Assembly (NCBI GenBank): GCA_963709405.1
Contig: CAVPXM010000001.1
Span: forward strand, 1 to 14,869
Direction: 5' to 3'
Length of the DNA: 14,869 nt
DNA from: an uncultured Nitrososphaerales archaeon
GTDB taxonomy: Archaea; Thermoproteota; Nitrososphaeria; Nitrososphaerales; Nitrososphaeraceae
The translations under genes were made by a program, and so were the position numbers. The notes below the pieces were generated by a model. It saw only the letters and a list, made by a program, of their open reading frames with translations, was not told the origin of the DNA and did not search any database. Every line of letters starts with the position of its first letter. The stretch's first letter is position 1. This document shows, in pieces, positions 1 to 14,869 of this stretch.

Positions 1-243
1 AAGTGTGTCAGTTAATGGACTGAGATCCTCGCGCAGTCGATTAGACTTACCGTACTTGGGAACGTTGCAGCGACTCGTCGTTCGCTAGGTAGTGTTTTCA
101 GACACTTGCTATGGTTGAGTGACACGTCAGGTCTCACTATCAATCTCGTACGAAAGGTAGACCTTGCTTTGCTTTAGCCTCGGCGGACGCGTTGTTTCGC
201 TAGTTGTGCTTTGTATTTGGCGTCTCGCTTTCCTTGTATAGAT

Positions 244-459
244 TTATTGATTTCGGTTTGTTAGCTCTGCGTTTACTTTACTGCTTGCTGCGGCTGCATT
301 AGTCTCAATTCTTTTTAATGTTATATCTCTGTGATCCTCTCCGTTGTTATAGCAATGACGTTCAAAATCGCTTAAGCTATAAACTTCCTTCTCGCAGTAA
401 TTACATTGATAGAAAGTAAACTTCTTTTGTTCGTCTAAGTATTCGTTGATTAGATCCAT
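244..459 (-). CDS. Small C2H2-type zinc-finger protein, probably a fragment of a longer gene
   Basis: YQCNYCEKEVYSLSDFERHCYNNGEDH fits C-x2-C-x12-H with a further His. The in-frame upstream sequence (HNHKSTNSAV-MDLINEYL) is open back to a TAA at 496-498. Confidence 0.45.
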   Translation of the reverse strand: MDLINEYLDEQKKFTFYQCNYCEKEVYSLSDFERHCYNNGEDHRDITLKRIETNAAAASSKVNAELTNRNQ

Positions 460-533
460 GACTGCGCTATTCGTAGATTTATGATTGTGTATATGTTAGA
501 CATCATCGTCCATGCACAATTGACATAGTCGCT

Positions 534-796
534 GAAGTTGATACCTTTAAGATCAATTTTTAGCGATATCTAACTTCAAACCAAATTCATCTGGTCTGTT
601 AATACTAGACATTAGAATGTCCACTATGAATGAATTTGAATTGCAAAAAAAGATAAAAGAGATTGACAATGAAGTCGAAGTATGCTTCATTATAGCATTT
701 GAAGACTATCATGAAGGGGTTTAGTAATCATTTCCGATGCTAAATGACGCTAAATACATTATCAGGAAACCAAGAGCAATCGAAAGATCAAGTTAA
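534..796 (+). pseudogene. CheY-like response regulator receiver (REC) domain remnant
   Basis: Manual translation: EVDTF/(frameshift ~549)DQFLAISNFKPNSSGLLILDIRMSTMNEFELQKKIKEIDNEVEVCFIIAFEDYHEGV**SFPMLNDAKYIIRKP. The phosphoacceptor Asp (LILDIRM) and the KP motif are kept. The N-terminal acidic pocket is missing, and TAG TAA lie at 722-727. Not in the ORF track. Confidence 0.85.
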
Positions 797-945
797 TCAT
801 ATGGCAGCAATTCTAGGATAACACTTGCGATTAGCATTATCTATGAAGCTCCGAAATATAACTGCAAGTACTACAATAACAAACCAAGTTTTTTGAAAGG
901 TTACAATCTAAAATGCCTTAGAAATAAGCCAGAGAAAAAATATTG

Positions 946-1340
946 TTATGGATTTACAGTGATATGATATGTAGTATCAAAATTCCATCCTATAGGAAAA
1001 AAAGGAGTTATAATTATTATTGGCTGTAGTATTAGTGGCAGTAATATTATTGTCTGTAGAGTTAGCATTAGAATTAGCATTAGGACTCACCGTATCTCCC
1101 CTAAAAGTAACTTCTCTTTAGGTTCTCCAGGTGAAAGAGGCTTGAGGAAAACCCAATTGCCATCTGCTATTGCTCGTGTTGTAGTATTAGCTGCTAATCC
1201 AAGAATATTATCTTGAGGTAATGCAAAGTTAAATTCTACTCCGTCGATGCTTGCTTGTAATTGTATAACTTGGTCTTGAAAAGTTTTTGCTCACATACGT
1301 AATTCTTCTAATGTCCTGAGTTCTGGAAATTCAGCTTGAT
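946..1340 (-). pseudogene. Exported/surface protein remnant of the 'ADGxWVFLKPLxPG' family, with an N/T-rich low-complexity tail
   Basis: Minus-strand translation: AEFPELRTLEELRM*AKTFQDQVIQLQASIDGVEFNFALPQDNILGLAANTTTRAIADGNWVFLKPLSPGE/(fs)VTFRGDTVSPNANSNANSTDNNITATNTTANNNN...IGWNFDTTYHITVNP*. TGA at 1291-1293; 5' part absent. Family recalled from Nitrososphaera hypothetical proteins. Confidence 0.7.
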
Positions 1341-1726
1341 TCAAATTATATTAGCAGGGAGGAGGCTGATAATGAAAATTGATGGTAAGAAAGCAGGGAG
1401 AGAGCATGGACATTGGTAAATGGTTTTTAGATAAAATATTCTCAGTATAAACCCTATATTTCGATATACGACCATGTCAACATGAAATAGAAGTTTCTCT
1501 CTTTTCAAATACTTTCATACCATGTTATAAGAATATTGACATCCAATTGTTTAAGACCAACCCATAAATAACAAATTTTATATCTTTTGCCTGTAACATT
1601 GACATGCACGGCTAAACTAATTTGTCATAATCTTCTTTATCTTGCTACTTATTTATTGCAGTTACGTATAGGTGGCAATATTCAGATATCTCTTCTTCTT
1701 CTTCTTTTCTAACTCTACCTGTTGTA

Positions 1727-1748
1727 ATTCAAATTATTCAAATTATTC
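1727..1748 (+). repeat. 9-bp tandem repeat (ATTCAAATT x2.4) upstream of the membrane/VFT gene, preceded by a (TCT)n tract at ~1691-1706
   Basis: ATTCAAATT ATTCAAATT ATTC read directly from the sequence. Confidence 0.6.
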
Positions 1749-1777
1749 TACATGAGCGTCGTTAGACCATAGGAGTA

Positions 1778-4046
1778 GTGATTTGTGATATAAAACTTAC
1801 CAGAAAGAGCCTCTTCCTTGGGTTAATTTTAGCCATTGTTATTTCAGACTCGTTCATTTATTTCGCTGAAATAAAAACAAAAGCTTTCTATTCAAGTTGG
1901 ATAATAAGCATTAATGCCTCTACGGCAGCAGACACTCGCCATATTTGTAGTATACAGACATATGCGGCAACGCAGCCATCATCCACAAGATCATCATCAT
2001 AGCAAAAGCCATGTGGCCCTTGCAATAGGATTGTCATTATGGCTTTGTGCGGATCTTATATGGGCAACGTATGAGATTGTGCTAGAAATAGTCCCGCCCG
2101 TTCCATCGGCGGCAGATTTTGTTTGGCTATCTGCTTACGGCTTTCTAGCGTATTATCTGTATGCCACATATATTGAATTCCACAAGAAATTCAAATTTAG
2201 CAGCAGAATTCTAGTCGCAAGTATAATTGGTTGTGGAATATTTCTTGCGTATATAATTGCTCTTACCTCAAGTCTATCTGTTTTATCTACTCCAAGAGGA
2301 ATTGCTATGTTTGCAGTCATAATAGCCTACCCAATCATGGATGCAGTATTAATGGTTCCTGCAATAGTAATTTTGTTAAACTTTAGAAAAGAGCCATTGT
2401 GGTTTACGCCTTGGATATGTGAATCCTTAGGTTTATTTTTAATGGCCATATCAGATAGTTGGTTCGCAGTCGTTGTTCTCATATCCGTACTAGAGCAGTT
2501 TTGGCTATCTGCTACATTTTTTGCGGCTCATTATTTGGTCATAGCTGCGGGATTATTATGGTATGTGAAATTTCTGCTTACACAGAGTCAACCAAGTGAT
2601 GACCATAGAAGGTCAGAACAAATGGAGACATCAATTATTGCTCCAAGAGGTGATTATACTAACAAGCCTAAATCAGAAGAAGAAAAAAACCGCAAAAAAA
2701 TTAGTTCCATGGCACTTACGGCTGTAGCGGTTATAGTAGTTATTGCTGTATCAATTGGAATTTATTTCTCTTTATATTCATTGCCATCGTTATCCTCATT
2801 TTTCCTGTTCTCTAATCCAAGTTCTGAGGTAATAGCACCAGCTCCAGCCACTGGTTTAAAGCAGCAAACAGTGAAAATAGGCGCTCTCCTTCCTATAACA
2901 GGTGTATCTTCATCTTTGGGTGATTCAGAGGGGGCAGCGCTAAAAATTGCAACTAAAGATATCAATGAATATCTGTTCAAGACCCATTCAAGCATTGGTA
3001 TTGAGCTGATTATAGAAGACACACAAACAAATCCATCAGTTAGCTTAGAAAAGCTAAGCAATTAGCAGCAAAAGGTATAAAGATAGTAATCGGCCCTGCA
3101 ACAAGTGCGGCAGTCCAAGGAATAAAAGACTACGCTGATAAGAATGGGATAATATTAATCAGTCCATCAAGTACTGCTCCATCTTTAGCGAGAGCCGGCG
3201 ATAACCTTTTTAGATTTGTGCCTGATGATAGCCACCAGGCACAAGCAATATCAAGGTTGATGTGGAATGATGGAATAAGGGTAGTAGTACCATTTTGGCG
3301 AACTGATATTTATGGAAATGATTTAGTTAAAGCAACAAAACAAAGTGTTCAAGCACTTGGTGGTAGCGTTGCAGATGGCGTTGGATATACACCTAATACA
3401 GGAGATTTTGCAGCTAGCCTTAATAGAATAAACTTTATCGTCTGGGACCAAGATCTGAAAGTTTTGGACTCAAAGGTAAACCAAGCAGTATCTCAGTATG
3501 GTATAGGTAAGGTTGGGGTATACTTTGTAGCATTTGATGAAATCGCACCCATTTTTATCCAAGCACAAAACCATCCTACCCTTTCAAAAGTAAAATGGTA
3601 TGGTAGTGACGGTTCTACGCTAAATAACAAGCTTATAAAAAATACTGAAGCCGCCGCGTTTGCTGTAAAAACGAATTTCACAACTCCAATATTTGCAGTA
3701 GAAAACGATAATGATGAACGGCTTAAACATGTCGAAGCTCAAATCCATGAACAGATAGAAAGAACACCCAGATCTTATGCTAGTGTTGCATATGATACAT
3801 TGTGGGTAGCGAGCGCTAGTCGAGAATTATACCAATGCTACACATGATATTAATTACTTGAAAAATACAATTGTGAAGATAGCTCAATCGTATCAAGGAA
3901 TCACAGGCAACACAACTTTAAACCAGTTTGGAGATAGGAAGTATGGAGATTATGATTTTTGGGCTGTAAGAAATAGTGAGAGTACTCATGATTCCTTTAT
4001 TTGGAAGCATACTGGCAAATACGTACCTAATATAAGAACTCAATAA
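1778..4046 (+). pseudogene. Frameshifted ~755-aa fusion: 8-TM membrane sensor-like domain + linker + TM anchor + type I periplasmic-binding (LivJ / Venus flytrap) domain. Either a pseudogene or sequencing indels.
   Basis: ORFs 1778-2002, 1914-3065, 3218-3847 and 3858-4046 join via +1 (~1931), -1 (~3056) and +1 (~3811) shifts. The bridge 3062-3217 reads LAAKGIKIVIGPATSAAVQGIKDYADKNGIILISPSSTAPSLARAGDNLFRFVPDD. LivJ-family motifs: VKIGALLPITG, IEDTQT, GPATS, FRFVPDD, AYDTLW, QGITGNTTLNQFGDR. No in-frame nonsense codons were found. Confidence 0.85.
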
Positions 4047-4320
4047 GCGTTTGTCAACCGGATTATGCTAATAAGCATGGTGGAAGACGTTGTGTTTGTT
4101 GTGTCTGTGGAGCGTAACTGATCCCGCTGCGCAAGTCCATAAATGAATCCAGCGGTTACTTACCACGTTTCTTATCTCTATAGGTAATAGGTTGCTTTGA
4201 TAAGGATAGGCATCTTAGAAATTAGAACCGTAGAGCCAACCTTTAGACCAAACCTATGCCTTCACAATGTTGTAACCGAAAAAGATAAAACTAAATTAAT
4301 TGAAATACTATTAACAAGAA

Positions 4321-4665
4321 ATGGCTAGTTCATCCATATGTTCTTCTGCATCAAGAGTTGCTCAGACTAATGATGAAGATTCCATAGACGCTATAGTTAC
4401 AATCAATGAAAAGGTAAGCTTAACAAAACAACAACATCAAGTTTTGAAAATTATCTGTGATACATATGATATTTCCTTTTCAGAGTATATGCAACAATCA
4501 CTAGTCGAAGCGATGAGGTTTGATATAGAAGAAGGTAATTTTTCTGATGCTTTGTTGGAAAAGATAGGCAGTGAAGACAGTAAAAAGGATAATTCTTCTC
4601 TTTCATCTTCTTCGGCCTCTCTTAATTCTTGCCTGACAAACAGCGATTTAGCAGCAGGTGGATAA
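4321..4665 (+). CDS. Hypothetical protein with a ribbon-helix-helix-like DNA-binding segment
   Basis: KVSLT-KQQHQVLKIICDTY-DIS-FSEYMQQSLVEAM fits the beta-strand/helix A/turn/helix B pattern of RHH proteins. Termini are Ser-rich. Confidence 0.55.
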   Translation: MASSSICSSASRVAQTNDEDSIDAIVTINEKVSLTKQQHQVLKIICDTYDISFSEYMQQSLVEAMRFDIEEGNFSDALLEKIGSEDSKKDNSSLSSSSASLNSCLTNSDLAAGG

Positions 4666-4854
4666 ATCAATATTCAAAACGCGAAAGCATTTTGCAGATT
4701 TCTAGATAGATAAGATGCAACAAGCAAGCCGGTAGTTGTGGCGCAACTATTACGTCTAGGATTTGAAACTCTCTACCAGACATATTTTTGTTGTTGCTTC
4801 TATCGTCATCCCGGAAGCACCTTTTCCTATCATGTGTTTGTTAGGATAAGATTT

Positions 4855-5490
4855 CTAAGCAATTTCATTCAGACGCGCATGTGCTACCTTAGCAGTCATT
4901 GGATTATTATAGATGGGAGAACCAGGTTGTTGCTTACGACCACCTTCCCTCAGAGAACCTGTATCTACAGGTGCAAAACCTATATCCTCAATAAGCCCTG
5001 ATACAATAGCCTTTGCATCGGAATTATCTCCTGCAACAAAGATTGCAAAACGGTCTTCTCTTGGTGCATTAGGATTACCTTTTGTACGTAGATGCTCATA
5101 ATATATGGTATTAAATGCCTTAACGAGACGAGAAGAACTGGGAATTTGCTTTAACACCTCTTCACTTGATGTACTATTGCCCAGATCTATTACCTCAAAG
5201 TTTTCAGAATATGGATTCATTGCATCAATGACAATTTTGCCATCAAAGAGTTCTGATACAGATAGTAAATCTTGCTTTTTCCTCCATGGTATTGCAAGTA
5301 ATATAACATCACCAAATTTTACAGCATCCTCTACTGTCTTAGCTTTAATATTTGGACCAATTGAGTTTACAAGTGATATAAGAGATTCTGGTCCCCGTGA
5401 ATTGCTAATTGCTACTTCATGACCGGCGTTTACAAACAACTTAGCTGCAGTTCCGCCTATATTTCCTGATCCAATAATTCCTATTTTCAT
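4855..5490 (-). CDS. NAD(P)-binding oxidoreductase, F420_oxidored/COG2085 family (often annotated NADPH-dependent F420 reductase)
   Basis: Rossmann motif MKIGIIGSGNIG, then SNSRGP, DVILLAIP, IVIDAMNP, LVKAFNT, VAGD and GFAPVDTGSL. Full length (211 aa). Confidence 0.92.
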   Translation of the reverse strand: MKIGIIGSGNIGGTAAKLFVNAGHEVAISNSRGPESLISLVNSIGPNIKAKTVEDAVKFGDVILLAIPWRKKQDLLSVSELFDGKIVIDAMNPYSENFEVIDLGNSTSSEEVLKQIPSSSRLVKAFNTIYYEHLRTKGNPNAPREDRFAIFVAGDNSDAKAIVSGLIEDIGFAPVDTGSLREGGRKQQPGSPIYNNPMTAKVAHARLNEIA

Positions 5491-5524
5491 ATTTGCTTTT
5501 CTCTATTAACTATACTATTGTAAT

Positions 5525-5532
5525 TATATAAA
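5525..5532 (-). promoter_or_regulatory. Archaeal TATA box candidate (TTTATATA) for the oxidoreductase gene
   Basis: Minus-strand TTTATATA lies 35-42 nt upstream of the ATG at 5490. Confidence 0.5.
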
Positions 5533-5812
5533 CAGGAAAGTTAACGTGCAGTCCATTCTCGTACCACCGATACGATCTCTTTAGATAATCATAAACCATG
5601 CATGTTCTAGTGTTAGCAATGGGTGGAGGGCTATAAAAAGCACAGAAAGAGATTTTCCTTTAAATATAAATCAACCAACAAGTTATCTCAGGGAGAATGC
5701 AAATTATATAATTCAATAGTTGTTGAGATCGCACCAAAATATAGAGCGGCAACTAATGTAGAAAAGATCCAAAATCCGTAAAACAATATAGTTTTAGTCT
5801 ACGTCATTATAC

Positions 5813-6171
5813 TTGCAGTACCACATTGGCTGCTCTTGATGGAGTTTTTCAGCTTAGCAAGGAGCGTTTTATCCTCGCAATCTAGAAAATTCCAAGTGGG
5901 TAAGTTACTATTCTCAAGTATTTGATTTTGTAGAAATTGATGCTTCTTTCTACAGAATTCCTAACGAATTTATGGTAAAGAACTGGTCCGAGAAGACCCT
6001 GACGATTTTAGATTTGCTGCTAAATTTCCAAAAGTCCTAACTCATGATAAGAGATTAAAAGATGTAGAAAGAGAACTGAAATTGTTCTTTTCTTCTATAG
6101 CTAACCTTGAAGACAAAATTTTAGCATTATTGATATAGTTACCACACTCAACAGGTATAGTTGAAGGACTC
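5813..6171 (+). pseudogene. DUF72 (YecE-like) domain protein, N-terminal half, decayed
   Basis: LQYHIGCS*WSFSA*QGAFYPRNLENSKWVSYYSQVFDFVEIDASFYRIPNEFMVKNWSEKT/(fs)DDFRFAAKFPKVLTHDKRLKDVERELKLFFSSIANLEDKILALLI*LPHS matches the DUF72 motifs (IGCSGW, FYP, VEIDxSFY, PxxFxFxxKxP, LxQLP). Stops at 5837, 5855 and 6136; frameshift at ~5998. Confidence 0.92.
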
Positions 6172-6297
6172 GTGGTTTCAAGGTGACTTTAGGGAGCTAT
6201 TTCAGTTGAAGATTTAAGTCGAACCAATCTGATTGAAAGATATATCTTAATTTATTAACCGCACAGCGAAAAAAGTCCATCAAACACAAAAATTGAT

Positions 6298-6808
6298 TCA
6301 GCTACGTCTAGTATCTAGATTTTTTCGAGTCAATGCTGTAAATGCTGAAACAGAAATACCTATCCAATTTGAGATGTCATATAACTTTGCAGCCTCATCT
6401 ACAGCAGGACCTATAAGCATTCTTGACGAATGGTAAAAATTACCCATTGCTATTACGCCTCTGAAAAAAGTCATAACGCATACTTCTCACGAATGCGGGT
6501 ATTATAGCACTTGCAAATATCTCAATGAATCTCCACGATTGAGTGATAAGTGCTTTGTGACCGCTCATACTAATGATTAGAGTATCTGACAACATCGACA
6601 AATTGATGCCTAAATGACGGAGTGTATCAGAGAACGTGCGGTAAACATTATCCCAATTTTTCAGAACTTCTGTAGGATCTTTTGTTTCCCAGATGCCTTT
6701 TACCCCCAGAGCATCCAGAAAAGCTATCACCCCATCTACTTTTTCGTAACGTATACCTCGAATTACGTAACATGTGCCGTCAGAAGTTATGGGAGTATTT
6801 GATGCCAT
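6298..6808 (-). pseudogene. Divergent class III nucleotidyl (adenylate/guanylate-type) cyclase domain, frameshifted
   Basis: The ORF contains VIAFLDALG (first metal-binding Asp) and LSDTLII (second Asp). After a shift in the 6-nt homopolymer at 6464-6469 it continues RGVIAMGNFYHSSRMLIGPAVDEAAKLYDISNWIGISVS to a TGA at 6298-6300. Confidence 0.75.
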
Positions 6809-7013
6809 GACTATTGGAAATTATTAGTTGGGATGTAAAAGAAGGTTATCATAGTGGTAGGTGGCGTACGAAGAATTAGCCATTTTGGAATGCTTTGATC
6901 ACAATAAGATTAAGATATCTAAACCAATGGGAATGAGGAAATAGCCTTGCAAAATGATAAAGATGTAGAAAATTGAATTAAATCTTAAAAAAAATAGGAG
7001 AAAAGATTTTGAC

Positions 7014-7253
7014 TTAAGCCGGAAATATATTATACCGCGTATCTATCCCTGATCTAAATCTTTGAACTTTGAGCAAGTTATGTCCTTTGTTTAGGAACGC
7101 ATTTATCTGTTCTGATGTCCTTCTACTTACTTCCCAGTACTTTTCTTGACCTGTGTTAGGCTCAATTACTATGTATTGGAATCTTTGTACGTGTTTTCCG
7201 TCAAACACCTTCTCCACAGCTATCATTTTCTCATGATTGGTGCTTTGTTGCAT
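7014..7253 (-). CDS. N-terminally truncated beta-rich protein resembling putative viral/mobile-element ssDNA-binding (OB-fold) proteins of Nitrososphaeraceae
   Basis: FDGKHVQRFQYIVIEPNTGQEKYWEVSRRTS...LKVQRFRSGIDTRYNI. The terminal 'KxxRxGxGxDTxY' pattern is recalled from phage-type SSB-like families. T-rich terminator-like tract downstream. Assignment from memory. Confidence 0.45.
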   Translation of the reverse strand: MQQSTNHEKMIAVEKVFDGKHVQRFQYIVIEPNTGQEKYWEVSRRTSEQINAFLNKGHNLLKVQRFRSGIDTRYNIFPA

Positions 7254-7367
7254 ATGCTCGATTAAAAAATAATTTAATGACCATGACAGAACTCAAAGTA
7301 TTAGGTTAGTATGTATGAGCGGCTAACTCGGTGTAAAGATCGCACTAAATGGAACATTATGATGACG

Positions 7368-8195
7368 CTAATTTTTGTTTAAATTATAATCAAGAAATTC
7401 ATCTATAATCTGATTGACCTCTTCTGGTGCTTCTTGTTGTATCCAATGACCGCAGTTAGGTATAATCTTCAATGAGAATAGTGCATCAACAAATTCACTT
7501 GTTCCTTCTGTTAACTCCTTTCCTAAAAATAGATCTTCTTCTGCCCATATTTGCAATGTAGGAGATTTTATTTTTGGGAATGGAATACTTTCCTCAAGAT
7601 TTCCCCAAAATTCTGCATTTAGATTAGATCTATAGTAATTTATTCCTCCAGTTATCCCTCCTTCCTTACTCCAAGAAGAGGTATACCATTCGATATCCCT
7701 TTGAGTAAACATCTTTTTTCTTTTTGTTGAAATTTCAAATATATGCTTGAGCAATTCAAAATTATTGCGGCTTAGAATTCTCTCAGGCACATTTTGTAAA
7801 AGAAAGAAGAACATGTACCAACTCTTTTGCATTTGCTCATAGTTTCTAAATGCATTCCTTTGGAATACTGCAGGGTGAGGTGCATCCATAATAATTAAGT
7901 TTTCTACTAAGTCAGGTGCCATCATTCCAATAGACCAAGTTATTACACCTCCCCAATCGTGCCCTACGATTGTTGCCTTTTCTTGTCCCAGCGAATGAAT
8001 TAGTTCTACAATATCTGTAACTAACTTTTCTATTCTATATTGATCTATTTCCGTAGGTCTTTCAGTTTCACCAAATCCACGCATATCCGGTACAGCTACT
8101 TTAAAGTGCTTTGAAAAGAAAGGAATTTGGTGTCTCCAGGAATACCAAAACTCGGGGAACCCATGCAAAAATACGATTAATGGGCCTTTTCCCAT
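7368..8195 (-). CDS. Alpha/beta hydrolase, soluble epoxide hydrolase (EphA-like) family; first ~15 residues apparently lost
   Basis: HGFPE oxyanion motif, PDMRGFG, GHDWGG (Asp nucleophile), cap tyrosines (SWYMFFF, NYYR), acid in WAEED and His in GHWIQQE. An in-frame TAA lies 9 codons upstream of the ATG, so the usual N-terminal beta strands are absent. Confidence 0.9.
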   Translation of the reverse strand: MGKGPLIVFLHGFPEFWYSWRHQIPFFSKHFKVAVPDMRGFGETERPTEIDQYRIEKLVTDIVELIHSLGQEKATIVGHDWGGVITWSIGMMAPDLVENLIIMDAPHPAVFQRNAFRNYEQMQKSWYMFFFLLQNVPERILSRNNFELLKHIFEISTKRKKMFTQRDIEWYTSSWSKEGGITGGINYYRSNLNAEFWGNLEESIPFPKIKSPTLQIWAEEDLFLGKELTEGTSEFVDALFSLKIIPNCGHWIQQEAPEEVNQIIDEFLDYNLNKN

Positions 8196-8588
8196 TGTTG
8201 CAGAATGGCTTTGACTTTCTTAGAATTAAAATAGTAGAACCTCTTGGCTTGGGAGCAGATATTTCAGGCCTCGGTGGAACGGCTACTAACGTGACAGAAT
8301 ATCATCTGCAGGAAATAGAGTCGATGAGCCTGATATCCGCTAGTACATCATAACTTGACAACCTTAGATTATAGGCCATATGTGAAAGATCGTATTCAGC
8401 ACATTTAACAGATGGATCACTGGTAGATGAAGGAGCGTCTAGTGCTTTCTACTTTTCTTTTGATTAGTCTTTTTTTTGATTTTATAGTTGTTGTCTTCTT
8501 AGCTATTACCTTAGACCCTGTTTCTAGATTCAATAGTGACATTAATATGGAATTGGTTAAAATGTAAGGTCACAATTAATATCCTCTA

Positions 8589-10007
8589 ATGCCTAGTGCT
8601 GATGTACCAGATAAACAAAGAGCTATAGTCTTTCAAGGTAGTGTGGCCCTTGGTGCTTTTGAGGCAGGGGTTTTTAAAAAATTGTATGAGATGATTAAAC
8701 AAAAAGATGGCAACTGGAAAAAAAGGATGTTTGATATAATTGCTGGCACTTCGGCGGGAGCTATAAATGCTGCAATATTAACAAGCCATGTAAAGCAGAA
8801 AAAGACGTGGGAAGGTTCAGCAGAAAAAATTGAACAATATTGGAAAGATCATTTATCTTCACCTACTCCGGCCATTACAAAACAGGGAGTATACTGGTGG
8901 GATGAACAATATCAATGGTGGGGAAAATACTATGATACCGTTACTACCAGCGGCATCGATAATCGTACTGTAGCATCTGAGGAAGCCGCAAGAAGATATT
9001 ATTCTACAAAGTATTTTTTTACATATGGTGTATCAACGGTATTTTCGCCGGCCATCCCATTTCCGGAATTAGATAGTAAATTCCTTGACAATAATCCATT
9101 GTTTCCGCCAGCAAATCTCTGGCTTCGCTATAGTAATAAGCCATTAAGAGAGAGTCTTGAACACATCGACCGAAATGGAAATAAATTTGTCAATTTTCCA
9201 TTAACCACAAATTATAATGATGGAGAGCCAAGATTTCTGGCAGTTAGTGTGGACGTACAACATGCTAAGGCAGTCACGTTTGATAGTTATTCAAGGAAAT
9301 CAACATTTCAAGCATATGATCCAGATACAGGAGATTACAAAGATCATATAGTTAGCTATGACAAAGGAATCATGCCAGAACATGTTATGGCAAGTGCTTC
9401 ATTTCCAGTATACTTTGACTATGAAGTAGTGGATGGACGGAAGTTCTGGGATGGTGGTATACTGAGTAATACACCTTTAAGGGAAGTTTTGCAAGCACAT
9501 CGCGATTATTGGCACAAGGACAGGAAAGTAGGAAAGGTTCCGGACCTAGATGTCTATATAGTAAATGTGTGGCCCTCTATCGAAAGTACCATTCCAACAG
9601 ACCATGATGGAGTTACAGACAGGAAGAATGACATTACACATAGTGACCAGACTGAATATGACCAGAAGGTTGCATTTTTTGTGGGTGATTATTACAATTT
9701 AGCCAATGAATTGATAGACTTGGCAAAAAGAAAAGGTGCTTCGACTGCAGAGATAGACGCAATATTATCAATACAAGCAAAGAGCATAAAACGCACTGGA
9801 ATTCGAAGAACTTACAATGACCTTGTAGAAGGCCGGTTTGATCTCCGAAAGGTAGTAACAATAGAACATAAAGACGATCCTGATAGCATTTCAAACAAGT
9901 GGGCTGATTATACGGAAGAGACAATTAATAAACTAATAAGCGATGGAGAAGAATTTGACAAGAAGGCAATAGTTAGGGTAATACCAACTCACCTCGAAAT
10001 CATCTGA
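8589..10007 (+). CDS. Patatin-like phospholipase family protein with a DUF3734-like C-terminal extension
   Basis: AGTSAG (GxSxG nucleophile), VMASASFP and WDGGILSNTPL (DGG catalytic Asp). The glycine-rich loop reads QGSVALGAFEAG. Confidence 0.93.
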   Translation: MPSADVPDKQRAIVFQGSVALGAFEAGVFKKLYEMIKQKDGNWKKRMFDIIAGTSAGAINAAILTSHVKQKKTWEGSAEKIEQYWKDHLSSPTPAITKQGVYWWDEQYQWWGKYYDTVTTSGIDNRTVASEEAARRYYSTKYFFTYGVSTVFSPAIPFPELDSKFLDNNPLFPPANLWLRYSNKPLRESLEHIDRNGNKFVNFPLTTNYNDGEPRFLAVSVDVQHAKAVTFDSYSRKSTFQAYDPDTGDYKDHIVSYDKGIMPEHVMASASFPVYFDYEVVDGRKFWDGGILSNTPLREVLQAHRDYWHKDRKVGKVPDLDVYIVNVWPSIESTIPTDHDGVTDRKNDITHSDQTEYDQKVAFFVGDYYNLANELIDLAKRKGASTAEIDAILSIQAKSIKRTGIRRTYNDLVEGRFDLRKVVTIEHKDDPDSISNKWADYTEETINKLISDGEEFDKKAIVRVIPTHLEII

Positions 10008-10384
10008 TATATGAGTTTTTGTAATATTTCAACCATCTTTGTATGCCATTTGCCAGGCACTCAAGAATTCACATACGTCGAGAGTGCGAAAGACACCGTT
10101 TACACAAATACTAATAATGAGATCATCAGTCAATTCCTCATTTATCTACGGGATCACATTTGGCCTGACTTCTATACTGACACTCTTTCTAACAGAAAAA
10201 CTGTCATTGGCGCGTCTAAACTAAATTGTCACCTTTGTTTGGAGGCATAGTGGTTAGTCAATCCTTTCTCCTTCTTTGTTCAAACCACTTAGGTCAACTT
10301 CAACAAATATTGATTCATCTTTCTTAGCTGCAACAATCCATCTTTTTAATTCTTCTTTCCAATTGATTTCATTTTCATCATCAA

Positions 10385-11143
10385 TTATTTGATCGTATGC
10401 ATGCTACATTTAGAACAGTACTTGTTTTCAAATGTGTTGACCAAACTACATCGTGGACAGTTATGAACAGATGGTTTTTTCTCTACCTCACTTTCTGTAA
10501 TAATCCCATTTTGAATAAGGATCTTTTGCTTTAGATCATTTCCCATCCTTCTTTTAATATACCTTGATCCTTGTTTTGAATTCATCGACCATCTTACTTT
10601 TTTCTTTAGCGCGTACTCGGGAAGAAAATCTGAATCTGAAGTGATTGCCGAATGTCTAATACAATATGGATTCCACCTTTTGGTATTAAGTAAAAAATCT
10701 AATTTCTTGCGCTCATTTTCTTCTATAATAGTTCCATTACGTAGTAAGCGCGCTATTCTTTTCTTTAACTGTTTCATAATAGTGCATAGAACATCAGGTT
10801 TTATTGGTGCACCGGTAACAAGATTACAGATCAGTCGAGCATCGCCTTCGTTTCTAAAAGGATGTTCATTGAGCCAATCACGAACATATGGGAAAGAGCA
10901 TGAAAGTTAAAATCTCATCACGTTCCCACAGTTCGGATTCTAAATAGGGACTAATACGTTTGGTTCGCTTCTCTTTGATTTGGACAAAACTGGAGTAGTC
11001 CAATCTGATGTTGGCAATGGCTCCAATCCCTTGGTTTCTGATTCCTTTTGATTGTAAAACCACCTGAAGAAATATTTTATACGCTGTAAGTAATCATTCC
11101 AAGTTCTAATCCATCTTTTGTCAGGATCGCTTTGAACATCCTT
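10385..11143 (-). pseudogene. Tyrosine recombinase/integrase remnant with a C-terminal zinc ribbon; frameshifted and internally deleted
   Basis: Pieces: DPDKRWIRTWNDYLQRIKYFFRWFYN...SDWTTP /fs/ KRISPYLESELWERDEILT /deletion ~10905/ CSFPYVRDWLNEHPF...WNPYCIRHSAIT...WSMNSKQGSRYI...CPRCSLVNTFENKYCSKCS. Box II (YxxRH) and the catalytic Tyr are retained; the box I Arg region is missing. Confidence 0.85.
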
Positions 11144-11611
11144 AGGTTACAATATAAGAGCTCTCGTATAGAGTCACCAGAACTTGCAAGAAAAGGTTAA
11201 AAACTAAATATCATTATTAAAATAAGGAATAGTGGTCTGAATTAGAAGCCAGGCTGACCCAGTCGTTTTAGAAGACTACTCGCTCAATTCTTCTAACTGT
11301 ACCGACAGGCATCGCTGCGTACTCGTGAATGATCGTACCAGCAGGATCAACTAACTGAAAAATCGCACCAGTAGTAGGAGGAGTCATGACAGCACCGCCA
11401 CTGAGAAAAATATCCGACAACATGTTACAGCCTGACGATGACAAGAATCCGTCGAAAAGGCGACAGAACCTTGGCAAGATATTATTTGACCAAAGCAAGA
11501 ATAAGAATCAAAAAATAAGCACACCCTTGGATTAGATTGCTGATGATGAAGCATACCTTGTAGTCAAAATCTGGTTTTTAAAAGTATAAGCAGTTCAGCA
11601 ATTTGCCGAAA

Positions 11612-11640
11612 CGTATATAGAAGCGTATATAACAAAGCGT
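11612..11640 (+). promoter_or_regulatory. TATA-box candidate within short direct repeats (CGTATATA x2, AAGCGT x2) upstream of the membrane protein gene
   Basis: CGTATATA at 11612 and 11624; AAGCGT at 11621 and 11635. TATATAA at 11626-11632 lies ~31-37 nt before the TTG start at 11663. Confidence 0.4.
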
Positions 11641-11662
11641 CGATTATACAACACAACAAGCA

Positions 11663-13048
11663 TTGGTAGTCACTACGAGTATCATTAGCAAAAAAACTTA
11701 TTTGATGACGTTTATTGCTTGGGCCATAATAATTACCGATGTAATCTTTGGCACCTTTCTTGACGCTTTGGGAAAGCCTCTTAATTCTTCTTTTGGTGTA
11801 ATATTGTTTATAGCAATGAGTATCACTGTATTTTTTGCAGGTCTGTATGCCCTTAGAGATTATATGGTTGCATTGCGCAAAGAACTTGAGGCTCCTTCGT
11901 TTTTTAATAGGCTGTACAAGGCAACACCTATTTTTCTTTATGCACTTTTAGTCATCTTTGGAGCTATCATTGTTGAAATGGTGTTATTTTCACATTATAG
12001 CACTTTCCTGCTGATTCTAATTCTCTTAATAAGTACAGTGGCCATCTTGTTCTTTGGTTTTCGCACTTACAAATTCTTGTCATGGTTCAAATCGAGTCTC
12101 AACAAACGACACAACATCATGATATTGGCATTTGCTGTATCATCGATGCTCCTTTGCATCAGCACGACAGTTGCTATTACACTTGATATAAAGGAATTAG
12201 TCGTTTCAAGACCACCTTCTATAGATCCAAATTTCAACTCTAGCAATTCTATGGCAAGCAGACACTTAACTAGTATAGAACTTATCATTCATCTTTATGG
12301 GTTTCTTGTCCCTCAAGTTACTGCCATTGCTATCGCAGAAACAGTTGCTGTTGCATTTTTCCTTCGTTATTTTAGGGATCAGATAGGAAGAGCAATATTT
12401 TGGACAATTATAATTTTACCACCTGTACTTTTTTTAACTGGGGTATTTGGTCCTCAATTTTTAAAGTCAACTGGAACTGTATTTGTATATGCCGATCCCA
12501 GGTTCCTTATCTTTAGGGTAATGGGTACCGCAGGATGGGTTCTAGCTGATTTTGTAATAGCTTATGCATATATTTTAGTAGCAAAAACTCTTCGACGGCA
12601 AATTACCTCTTCTCGTAAGATCATTAACTATTTGATTATAGCAGCATTTGCAACCATTTTAATTTCTCCAACGACCAATAACTGGATAACCAACAATTCT
12701 TATCCACCCTTTGGAGCAATCCAACGTGCCTTTGTTGTCCTTGCTTCTTTTCTCTTTAGCTTAGGAATATACTCTGTCGCGCTGTCAGTGGCCCAAGATG
12801 CAGAATTGCGTCATTTAGCCAGAAAATATGCAAAGGAGTATGCTCTGCTAGATACTTTAGGTAGTGCGCAAGAGAACGCAGAGATTATGGGAAAGGTTGT
12901 AAAACTAGTCCATAAACACGCAGATGCCATGGAAAAAGAAACAGCAATAGAATCTTCAATGTTAGATGTTAACGAAGTTAGACAATATTTAGAGTTGGTA
13001 ATTATGGAGACTAGAGGAAAAAAGGATGACAGAACAGTCGGCGCCTAG
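11663..13048 (+). CDS. Conserved multipass membrane protein (~10-11 TM) with a cytoplasmic helical C-terminus, function unknown
   Basis: 461-aa intact ORF with many hydrophobic segments. SYPPFG...GIYSVALSVAQDAELR...LLDTLGSAQ is recalled as the signature of an expanded Nitrososphaeraceae hypothetical family. Confidence 0.8.
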   Translation: MVVTTSIISKKTYLMTFIAWAIIITDVIFGTFLDALGKPLNSSFGVILFIAMSITVFFAGLYALRDYMVALRKELEAPSFFNRLYKATPIFLYALLVIFGAIIVEMVLFSHYSTFLLILILLISTVAILFFGFRTYKFLSWFKSSLNKRHNIMILAFAVSSMLLCISTTVAITLDIKELVVSRPPSIDPNFNSSNSMASRHLTSIELIIHLYGFLVPQVTAIAIAETVAVAFFLRYFRDQIGRAIFWTIIILPPVLFLTGVFGPQFLKSTGTVFVYADPRFLIFRVMGTAGWVLADFVIAYAYILVAKTLRRQITSSRKIINYLIIAAFATILISPTTNNWITNNSYPPFGAIQRAFVVLASFLFSLGIYSVALSVAQDAELRHLARKYAKEYALLDTLGSAQENAEIMGKVVKLVHKHADAMEKETAIESSMLDVNEVRQYLELVIMETRGKKDDRTVGA

Positions 13049-13063
13049 CTTTAAGCTTATTGG

Positions 13064-13321
13064 CTAATGCTTGACACAAAGAGGGATTTGATCATATTCC
13101 AAAAGAAGGGAGGAGGAGAAGAAGACCAGGAGTGAACAACTACCTGTCATAGACCGGTAGCCTCTTTCGAATAGATAGTCAGCTAATAAATTGAATCTAT
13201 TGTGAAGGTCTATTGATACTTTGGTGGAAATTACTTTATTTCGCCGGCGAACTATGCGGTCATTATCATCCTTAATTTGATTGTCAAGTGCAGCAGCCAA
13301 TAGTAAGTCTACCAAGATCAA
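13064..13321 (-). CDS. Possible RHH-like DNA-binding protein fragment
   Basis: RRRNKVISTKVSIDLHNRFNLLADYLFERG resembles an RHH strand plus helix A. The C-terminal part looks degenerate. Confidence 0.35.
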   Translation of the reverse strand: MILVDLLLAAALDNQIKDDNDRIVRRRNKVISTKVSIDLHNRFNLLADYLFERGYRSMTGSCSLLVFFSSSLLLEYDQIPLCVKH

Positions 13322-13690
13322 GACTATAAGTTTTTACAAAATTCAATTTAATATTCGTTTTATTGGTAGACCTCGTGATATACTTTTTAGTAATAGTGTT
13401 CAACAAGAGTACTTTACTACCTCGGTCGACCATGTTTACTATCGCTGTTACTCTAGTCTTTCTTCATTGGCAGCGTTCGGGCGAATAAATCGATAACTTG
13501 CCATTACTATAATGTTTAGGTAGACCGGCATAGACTGATGCGTGATAGACCAGATTGGTTCATGGGACTTGAGAGTACGATCTGCAACTTTGTACAGTAC
13601 CTCAGCTTATGCTTACCATAATAGCTATTATGGATGTACTAGTTTAGTTATCGTAAAAGGACACAATTAATAGGTGACTGGTAGACCAGG

Positions 13691-14075
13691 ATGTTGATAT
13701 TGCTTTTTGCATGAATTTGGGTATTGGCCTTTACTGCTTTGACATCTAGCTCTTTTGCACATGAATCAACTCAATAACGTTATAGTGATGGATACAATGC
13801 CGGACAAGACTACGCGGCTTACGATTATAGTAACTGCGATGGTTGTAACCACGGCTATGATACGGACTGCCCAAATGATAAAAAATACACTTATGAATTC
13901 TGTGATGGGTATTCACTAGGCTATACAACCAAATGGCACTCATTATGTGGTGATACCACGACGCAGCAGCAAACTCAGAGCCAGGCTCACGGCGACTCTA
14001 ACGTGCGCATTGATGGCAGCCAGAATAATGTGATAATCCCTAACAATACAAATCATTCATGCAGCCAATTCAGTA
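13691..14075 (+). pseudogene. Secreted Cys/Tyr-rich GYxxG-repeat protein remnant
   Basis: MLILLFA*IWVLAFTALTSSSFA(signal peptide)HESTQ*RYSDGYNAGQDYAAYDYSNCDGCNHGYDTDCPNDKKYTYEFCDGYSLGYTTKWHSLCGDTTTQQQTQSQAHGDSNVRIDGSQNNVII. Stops at 13712 and 13775; in frame with ORF 14003. The 3' end is approximate. Confidence 0.75.
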
Positions 14076-14490
14076 ATTGTGTCCGATTAAATCAGTATCA
14101 ATACCATCTATTCAAGCAGTCTGTGATTCGACCAGTGTTTTTGACCGTATGTCATGTTTTGACAGCAGGGGGCTTGGATATTATAAATCCTGTTATTGCC
14201 CAGATGACTATCACAGGCAAAAGATGAGTTTGTACTCCCACGAGCCCTATCAAGAGAGATGTTAGATTTACAACCATGCCGCCTTTGATAACACAATCAA
14301 AACGTTGCCCCCACATACCCCCGGCGGAGGCACGGTTTCGGCACTAGGTCCTGTAGACTCCCACAAGGACATCTGCCCATAGCAGACTCGCTTTTGTCGG
14401 GATCCTCTTCACAGTGAAAATGTTCCACGTGGAAATCAGACCCTCTGGGTGCCCTTTGCCGCTCGGGCGCGGGTTCGCCTGCCCACGCTC

Positions 14491-14699
14491 ACCAGTCTGG
14501 TCCCAGTGGAGTAGGAGCTTTCTTGGAATGTGGTGCTCGTGCACCAACTGGCGGATGCAGTCCATCATTCCATCAATGAACGCCTTGGCTGTAACTTCAT
14601 CATGTTCCGCCCCGCAACTGGTGATGACGCGGTTCGGTATGTGATTCGTCCTGTCAGGCGGCGGCACCAGCTCTCGTCAATAGTGAGTACGCGTTCTGC
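14491..14699 (-). mobile_element. Fragment of a pogo/Tc5/Tigger-type transposase (end of CENP-B-like HTH to start of DDE_1), eukaryote-like
   Basis: AERVLTIDESWCRRL/(fs ~14653)RTNHIPNRVITSCGAEHDEVTAKAFIDGMMDCIRQLVHEHHIPRKLLLHWDQTG matches the pogo layout SWxxRxxxR...RxxT...IPxxLxxNWDQTG. Hand-counted GC is 205/360 (57%) over 14341-14700. Confidence 0.65.
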
Positions 14700-14805
14700 C
14701 TACTTAATGATTATGCTAGCTTAGTATGTCAAACTGTGTTATACCTGCGGTAGGCTTATAAGGTGTATCGGCTAAAGCCTCAAATTAATATGACCCCTCC
14801 CAAAC

Positions 14806-14822
14806 AGTTCCCTTAGGGAACT
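14806..14822. repeat. Perfect 8-bp inverted repeat (AGTTCCCT-T-AGGGAACT), operator-like
   Basis: Read directly; immediately followed by AT-rich, TATA-like sequence. Confidence 0.5.
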
Positions 14823-14869
14823 ATATGCAATAAATATAAATTAACAAATGCACTATGTTTAAGTATAAT

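Follow-up and report, generated by a model that had tools for sequence, protein, structure and literature searches.

The pogo superfamily of IS630-Tc1-mariner transposons, which includes Tigger, pogoR and Fot, is characterized by the DDE_1 transposase domain (PF03184). In pogo and Tigger transposases, the motif around the first catalytic Asp is N-x-D-E-T-G. Six pogo families have been published, and a published survey reports pogo elements to be absent from prokaryotes (PMC7386202). The IS630 family, by comparison, has a DDE fold that is distantly related to that of the proteins discussed here.

The locus considered here lies at the tip of contig C1 of an archaeal MAG (G000); the entire contig, 14,869 bases long, constitutes the window analyzed. 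A preliminary description, made from the letters alone, had read a GC-rich stretch near its end as a piece of eukaryotic or giant-virus DNA captured by an archaeon, with an assembly chimera as the alternative. The present analysis favors that alternative: the island was probably joined to the archaeal contig by an assembly or read chimera, and not by gene transfer. With other chimeric contig ends in MAGs, the locus shares an abrupt change in composition near the tip, a truncated gene at the join, a native continuation elsewhere in the bin and in other samples, and the presence of several similar tips. It differs from them in that the alien piece is eukaryote-like and itself shifts in composition (58% and then 34% GC).

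A GC-rich island with homology to DDE_1 transposases

The island begins 568 bp from the end of C1 and contains 232 G or C residues in 399 positions (14302-14700; 58.1%), against 37.2% over 1-14301. Recounting returned exactly the figures of the preliminary description, 205/360 (56.9%) over 14341-14700 and 21/60 (35%) over the next 60 nt (14701-14760). The start given there (14305) is refined here to a sharper border at 14301/14302, the end of the match to the sister contig C25. Across C1, windows of 360 bp have a mean GC content of 37.6% (sd 4.0%), placing the island about 5 sd above the mean. GC contents of at least 56.9% were reached by 46 of 14510 such windows, all starting within 14273-14341; the island is thus the sole stretch of its kind on the contig. 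The coordinates of these and other features are collected in Table 1.

Table 1. Coordinates and annotation of features in the window, at other contig ends of G000 and beside relatives of the island
Feature	Coordinates	Strand	Annotation
Native archaeal overlap	13654..14301	.	equals C25:1295-1945, 98.8% identity over 651 aligned columns
GC-rich island	14302..14700	-	decayed, truncated DDE_1 (pogo-like) transposase relic; 58.1% GC; homologue P0001
Island remainder	14302..14438	-	GC-rich, without demonstrable homology; profile search empty beyond position 304
Relic piece 3, LVSVGRRTRARAAKGTQRV	14439..14495	-	P0001 208-226; frame of piece 1; 5-nt overlap with piece 2
Relic piece 2, NHIPN...HHIPRKLLLHWDQTG	14491..14646	-	P0001 153-205; ends at invariant W-D-Q-T
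Relic piece 1, VLTIDESWCRRL	14655..14690	-	P0001 138-149 by tblastn; frame differs from piece 2
AT-rich tail	14701..14869	.	33.7% GC; runs to contig end; no matches
GC-rich ends of four contigs	C25:1-1294, C35:1-486, C46:1-989, C63:1-1322		55-67% GC against 36% in the bin
GC-rich ends of C55	C55:1-5538, C55:430251-455655		the latter about 25 kb at 65% GC
L032 flank			L1-like endonuclease and RT (Pfam)
L033 and L018 flanks			LTR-retrotransposon gag, RT, RNase H and integrase (Pfam)
L013 flank			immunoglobulin domains (Pfam)
L011 and L012 flanks			HIRAN (Pfam)
L009 flank			dual-specificity phosphatase (Pfam)
L005 (Dehalococcoidia label)			IGFBP-like match just below cut-off (Pfam)

On its minus strand, the island reads ...NHIPNRVITSCGAEHDEVTAKAFIDGMMDCIRQLVHEHHIPRKLLLHWDQTG..., and the peptide NHIPNRVITS...HHIPRKLLLHWDQTG sits within a 110-codon open frame on that strand (14344-14676). 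The preliminary description had presented a single peptide starting with ESWCRRL; the part from RVIT to HHIPRKLLLHWDQTG is indeed encoded as described, but ESWCRRL lies in a different minus-strand frame and had been joined to it silently. Both parts nevertheless derive from the same ancestral gene, because homology to a single protein covers the two. This protein, P0001 (537 aa, encoded on a 3.2-kb assembly contig), was the only relative of the island peptide recovered when 1.84 billion representative proteins were searched exhaustively with phmmer (E 9.3e-11), and it scores above the Pfam DDE_1 cut-off (26.8 bits against 22). The two sequences are identical at 31 of 53 positions (58%) over P0001 residues 153-205, with a pairwise E of 3e-18. 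A word-indexed protein search with the 110-aa ORF, covering proteins of near and longer lengths, returned no relatives.

Together, tblastn and the family profile described below resolved the homology into three colinear minus-strand pieces in two frames, matching P0001 residues 138-149, 153-205 and 208-226. The second piece scores 21.7 bits against the family profile (positions 256-288); the first aligns to profile positions 222-242, with a weak score when taken alone. These two are separated by 8 nt where P0001 has three codons. Further along, a single base stands between WDQ and LVSVG, as opposed to four codons in P0001 and nine other aligned relatives, amounting to an 11-nt shortfall. Homologous sequence extends from about 14439 to about 14700, so that the relic spans some 90 of 537 codons, and its frame is broken at two or more places. 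Nothing is left of the N-terminal part or of catalytic Asp residues two and three. Because so few codons are covered, the frames are broken, and the N-terminus and two catalytic residues are missing, the island is a decayed transposase fragment.

Only the equivalent of D202, within WDQTG, is kept of the catalytic triad; this Asp is presumed to be the first catalytic residue, given its invariance and position. None of the seven island ORFs matched a Pfam domain at E<=10. In relatives, the match to the Pfam DDE_1 model starts about 32 residues C-terminal of the WDQT block. Membership of the island in DDE_1 accordingly follows from its homology to P0001, since the island has no direct DDE_1 match of its own. 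No HTH_Tnp_Tc5 or CENP-B domain was found in the island, which holds no sequence upstream of P0001 residue 138. In the GC-rich remainder, the string FTVKRIPT bears a weak likeness to a family F..KR..T motif; this was not significant, was missed by the profile and was treated as chance. Overall, the sequence comparisons support the view that the island represents a piece of a eukaryote-type pogo-like transposase gene.

Repeat searches found neither terminal inverted repeats nor a target-site duplication around 14302-14700, and the only pairs returned were a direct one of 11 nt and two weak inverted ones inside the AT-rich tail. The earlier remark that terminal inverted repeats are lacking and that the element is not intact thus holds, the gene also being truncated. 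The tail matched nothing elsewhere in G000, in the fetched DDE_1-family loci or in 40 related genomes; it may belong with the island to one alien fragment, or form a third piece. A candidate 3' splice site (TAG/G) occurs on the minus strand at 14700/14701, with CTAAG about 20 nt upstream, and the fall in GC content could therefore reflect an intron. A near-perfect palindrome with 13-nt arms and a 1-nt spacer was also observed in the tail, at 14801-14827.

The WDQTG family and its genomic settings

Searching a 5.8-billion-cluster collection with P0001 yielded five relatives at E<=1e-18, four of which carry a precomputed DDE_1 match. A family alignment was built from 10 of 26 proteins, namely six search matches and four cluster members of greater length; the remaining 16, mostly short fragments, belong to the same 90% clusters and were omitted. 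Six residues are invariant in all ten aligned proteins (W201, D202, Q203, T204, D322 and D365 in P0001 numbering). The WDQTG block, earlier named as a family motif, is thereby confirmed as such in its W-D-Q-T core. All ten members, P0001 among them, match DDE_1 (best E 2.9e-15), in agreement with the family call originally made. Four of the ten also match Pfam DDE_3, and six match the NCBIfam IS630 model (NF033545) weakly (best E 5.6e-7 in a scan of the family members), whereas P0001 has no NCBIfam match.

These proteins are called pogo-like here at the superfamily level, on the basis of DDE_1. Like pogo transposases, they contain three invariant Asp residues (D202, D322 and D365), the last in a Q-P-x-D context that we take to resemble a pogo motif. 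Intact copies measure about 2.4 kb, have TIR-like ends and occur as near-identical copies on different contigs. Several differences were also apparent. The motif at the first Asp is W-D-Q-T-G in place of the N-x-D-E-T-G of pogo and Tigger, and in some copies a further ORF encodes HIRAN and Ulp1 domains. The CENP-B-type HTH that the preliminary description expected before the catalytic region was not borne out, as neither HTH_Tnp_Tc5 nor CENP-B_N was detected in P0001 (E<=1) or in the ten members (E<=0.01). The island itself departs further from pogo elements, retaining just the stretch around the first Asp and matching no Pfam model.

One assembly provided a 2.43-kb transposon that is 98.6-99.8% identical on three contigs (L011:4493-6924, L012:4499-6934 and L013:4492-6925). 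It encodes a DDE_1 transposase, with a HIRAN ORF in antisense, and is bounded by TIR-like ends (..ATACCGTAT.TC..). This member of the WDQTG family appears to have been active recently.

The family is scarce among prokaryotic genomes: 57 pattern matches in 185,579 genomes (one per species) led to four confirmed loci in three MAGs. In JGI metagenome contigs, 184 pattern matches gave 34 confirmed ones (33 loci, some of them near duplicates). Scanning IMG/VR with the family alignment produced 22 pattern matches and no confirmed member, and a giant-virus source, suggested earlier as one option, finds no support there. Among the 23 metagenome loci of at least 5 kb, 19 have less than 50% of their bases in ORFs of at least 100 aa, and three of the four dense-ORF exceptions carry retrotransposon ORFs. 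The flanks were scanned with Pfam, using 70 of 109 ORFs of at least 130 aa from 17 loci after overlapping antisense ORFs had been dropped (Table 1). Ulp1 and HIRAN domains adjoin family copies. When the region 14302-14869 was compared with all fetched family loci by blastn and tblastx, only weak matches of 22-27 residues at the WDQTG block were obtained.

When 400 further genomes from the phylum of the archaeon were scanned, the family was found in one. This genome (G107) is an archaeal MAG of the same order with four contigs totalling 4.3 Mb, and all its copies lie on C3 and C4. In 20-kb samples, ORFs of at least 100 aa take up a fraction of 0.78 of the bases on the 2.16-Mb main contig, against eukaryote-like values of 0.14 on C2 and 0.32-0.43 on C3 and C4. 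The copies adjoin HIRAN, Ulp1 and RT ORFs, and C2 bears integrase-core ORFs. Contigs C2, C3 and C4 (with L062, L064, L066, L068, L069 and L071) are probably mis-binned host or eukaryote contigs.

Two further prokaryote-labelled MAGs were found to contain loci of the family. On a 192-kb contig of a MAG labelled Rokubacteria (L006), the terminal 3.8 kb have a GC content of about 50%, down from 68%, and the drop coincides exactly with the DDE_1-family fragment; this end may be another chimeric tip. Two loci from a MAG labelled Dehalococcoidia (L004 and L005) have a low ORF density; they look eukaryotic on account of that density and of the IGFBP-like match in L005.

The description of the family as mainly eukaryotic is consistent with these settings, in that relatives occur in DNA of low ORF density together with retrotransposons and with immunoglobulin, HIRAN and Ulp1 domains; a eukaryotic setting and an absence from prokaryotes are also what the survey reports for pogo (PMC7386202). 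The eukaryote-type, pogo-like label of the island is supported by the settings of its relatives and by the same survey. The most likely source of the scrap is therefore eukaryotic DNA.

Native continuation at the border and state of the archaeal bin

The overlap between C1 and C25 (Table 1) stops exactly at 14301, where C25 continues with AT-rich sequence unlike the island. The same continuation was found outside the bin: among Logan contigs aligned to 12800-14869, some from each of the four soil runs, from four studies, pass 14299-14301 into the C25 continuation; these runs are samples other than the source and represent close relatives (99.5% identity), and are thus also compatible with a strain-specific insertion. 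Past the border, the consensus of runs X1 and X2 is identical to C25:1946-1975, and those of X6 and X7 differ from it by a few letters. In the bin and in all four runs, the exact border is thus where native sequence, C25:1946 onward, stands in place of the suspect sequence. Cover over 14318-14869 is zero in the four runs, a gap that is uninformative by itself. Parts of the window occur in public metagenome runs from soil, peat and wetland; among the runs listed, at most 0.49 of the words of 13600-14869 are shared, and runs X10-X15, which share 0.28-0.32, could contain just the island.

The other end of the overlap was bridged as well. Record 4 of X1 (12995-14301; 6 differences in 1307 bases) and record 7 of X2 (13120-14301) cross 13654 in the C1 arrangement, and contigs of X6 and X7 also cross this position. 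Because the X1 and X2 contigs bridge both 13654 and 14301, the left part of C1, the overlap and the right part of C25 form one contiguous natural sequence in these populations. C1 and C25 are therefore overlapping pieces of one locus, each with an unrelated overhang. The overhang of C25 (C25:1-1294) is GC-rich and encodes a fragment of a CPSase large subunit (CarB-type) that is cut at the junction. Neither island nor tail was found in six same-genus genomes or in 18 others of the same family (24 in all), nor in 16 further genomes of the same order (40 relatives in total), where the sole match was 22 nt long (E 0.009). The island peptide and the island DNA likewise matched nothing elsewhere in G000, and a search of the whole genome with the Pfam DDE_1 model returned no match.

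G000 comprises 100 contigs (34-42% GC) totalling 4.83 Mb, with 91% completeness and 3.7% contamination. It contains a full-length archaeal SSU rRNA (1506 bits) and an archaeal amoA (393 bits), and thus represents an ammonia-oxidising archaeon. At six contig termini, GC content reaches 54% or more immediately at the end (the start of C25, C35, C46, both ends of C55, and C63), and several further GC-rich stretches, that of C1 among them, lie within about 200 bp of contig ends. The scanned GC-rich ends encode fragments or genes of ordinary families, such as the end of an ABC transporter (C46), TPR repeats (C63), an NRPS-type adenylation protein, MCRA, GH3 and cytochrome b561. These ends are likely to be chimeric joins or foreign DNA in the bin.

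Redundancy in the assembly is considerable, as 54 of 200 contig ends overlap another contig over at least 2 kb at 97% identity or more. Each kb of these overlaps contains 3.55 gap openings and 7.8 mismatches. This proportion of indels, together with the many broken ORFs of the window, suggests error-prone reads and an indel-prone assembly with uncollapsed redundancy. Repeats of about 0.5-1.2 kb occur in at least 15 copies, and uncollapsed copies have probably enlarged the 4.83-Mb total. Near-copies of window segments 1429-4651, 5792-6167 and 7234-7922 lie on other contigs (C88:1-3212 at 91%, C36 at 92-98%, and C13, C50 and C83 at 85-92%); contig C1 is a mosaic of repeated or strain-variant segments.

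Other parts of C1 merit brief mention. Positions 13724-14037 encode a small Cys-rich ORF (...YDYSNCDGCNHGYDTDCPNDKKYTYEFCDGY...) of a family with paralogues of 71-74% identity on C26, C31 and C54, several copies in same-genus genomes and no Pfam match. A periplasmic-binding or ANF_receptor-type gene is split over two ORFs (1914-3065 and 3218-3847), reflecting either a frameshift or a pseudogene, which fits the low long-ORF density of 0.56 on C1. At the opposite tip, GC content is also raised, at 50% in positions 1-200, and 1-300 contain no long ORF, no Rfam match and no match elsewhere in G000.

Origin of the contig tip

Taken together, the chimera that the preliminary description had offered as its alternative accounts best for these observations, given the native continuation in C25 and all four soil runs and the position of the island at a contig end. 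In this scheme, 14302-14869 would be foreign to the ammonia-oxidising archaeon and would represent a scrap of most likely eukaryotic DNA. Within the scrap, a pogo-like (DDE_1) transposase gene of the cut-and-paste type would survive as a dead and truncated copy, covering residues 138-226 or so of about 540, with AT-rich non-coding sequence after it. Either in vitro or in silico, the scrap would have been joined to genuine archaeal sequence at 14301/14302, probably through a chimeric read or because a metagenome assembly that is redundant and prone to error wrongly extended the contig tip. In the actual genome, window position 14301 would then lead directly into C25:1946 onward, and the fragment would have no function in the archaeon. 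Two observations speak against a chimera. AT-rich DNA flanks the island on both sides, as in a true insertion, so that a chimera needs a compositionally mixed alien fragment or two joins. In addition, the island looks eukaryotic, unlike the alien pieces at other contig ends, which have a bacterial appearance.

A genuine capture, the reading originally put forward, is considered unlikely. Here, some 400-570 bp of eukaryotic transposon DNA would have been integrated by illegitimate recombination, leaving a strain-specific dead relic in a soil ammonia-oxidising archaeon. The AT-rich sequence on both sides of the island is consistent with this, as is the decay of the fragment, whose two frame breaks include an 11-nt shortfall atypical for a base-calling slip. 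Soil archaea also share their habitat with fungi and protists, and the matching runs come from soil, peat and wetland. However, the uninterrupted native sequence past 14301 in C25 and in contigs of all four public runs speaks against capture, as does the tail, which has no archaeal match. The position at a contig tip, the reciprocal alien fragment on the C25 side of the overlap, the alien pieces at other contig ends and the absence from all genus and family relatives searched (0/24) argue in the same direction.

That the island is a remnant of a prokaryotic IS630-family insertion sequence of the archaeon itself is very unlikely. The weak NCBIfam IS630 matches in six of ten family members point this way, and IS630-like ORFs of G000 (on C13 and C7) touch the family profile at positions 401-438. 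Yet the IS630 and DDE_3 scores of the family lie below its DDE_1 scores, all ten members match DDE_1, and the sole phmmer match of the island, P0001, is a DDE_1 protein without any NCBIfam match. The IS630-like copies of G000 are AT-rich (about 34-36% GC, against 58% in the island) and have no sequence-level kinship to the island, whose peptide resembles nothing else in the genome, and members of the family sit in eukaryotic contexts. In AT-rich archaeal genomes, GC islands are usually structural RNA genes, and those of G000 include rRNA genes, but an RNA gene with a chance peptide similarity is more improbable still, in view of the protein homology at E 9.3e-11 against 1.84 billion proteins, the absence of Rfam matches (E<=1, whole window) and of tRNAs (ARAGORN), and the absence of the sequence from the 40 relatives searched.

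If the island were a true insertion after all, it would represent a rare transfer of a transposon from a eukaryote to an archaeon. Because the MAG is redundant and carries alien fragments at several contig ends, any "HGT island" in G000 needs read-level support. The implications extend beyond this archaeon, as eukaryotic pogo-like elements also enter other prokaryote-labelled MAGs by way of mis-binned or chimeric contigs.
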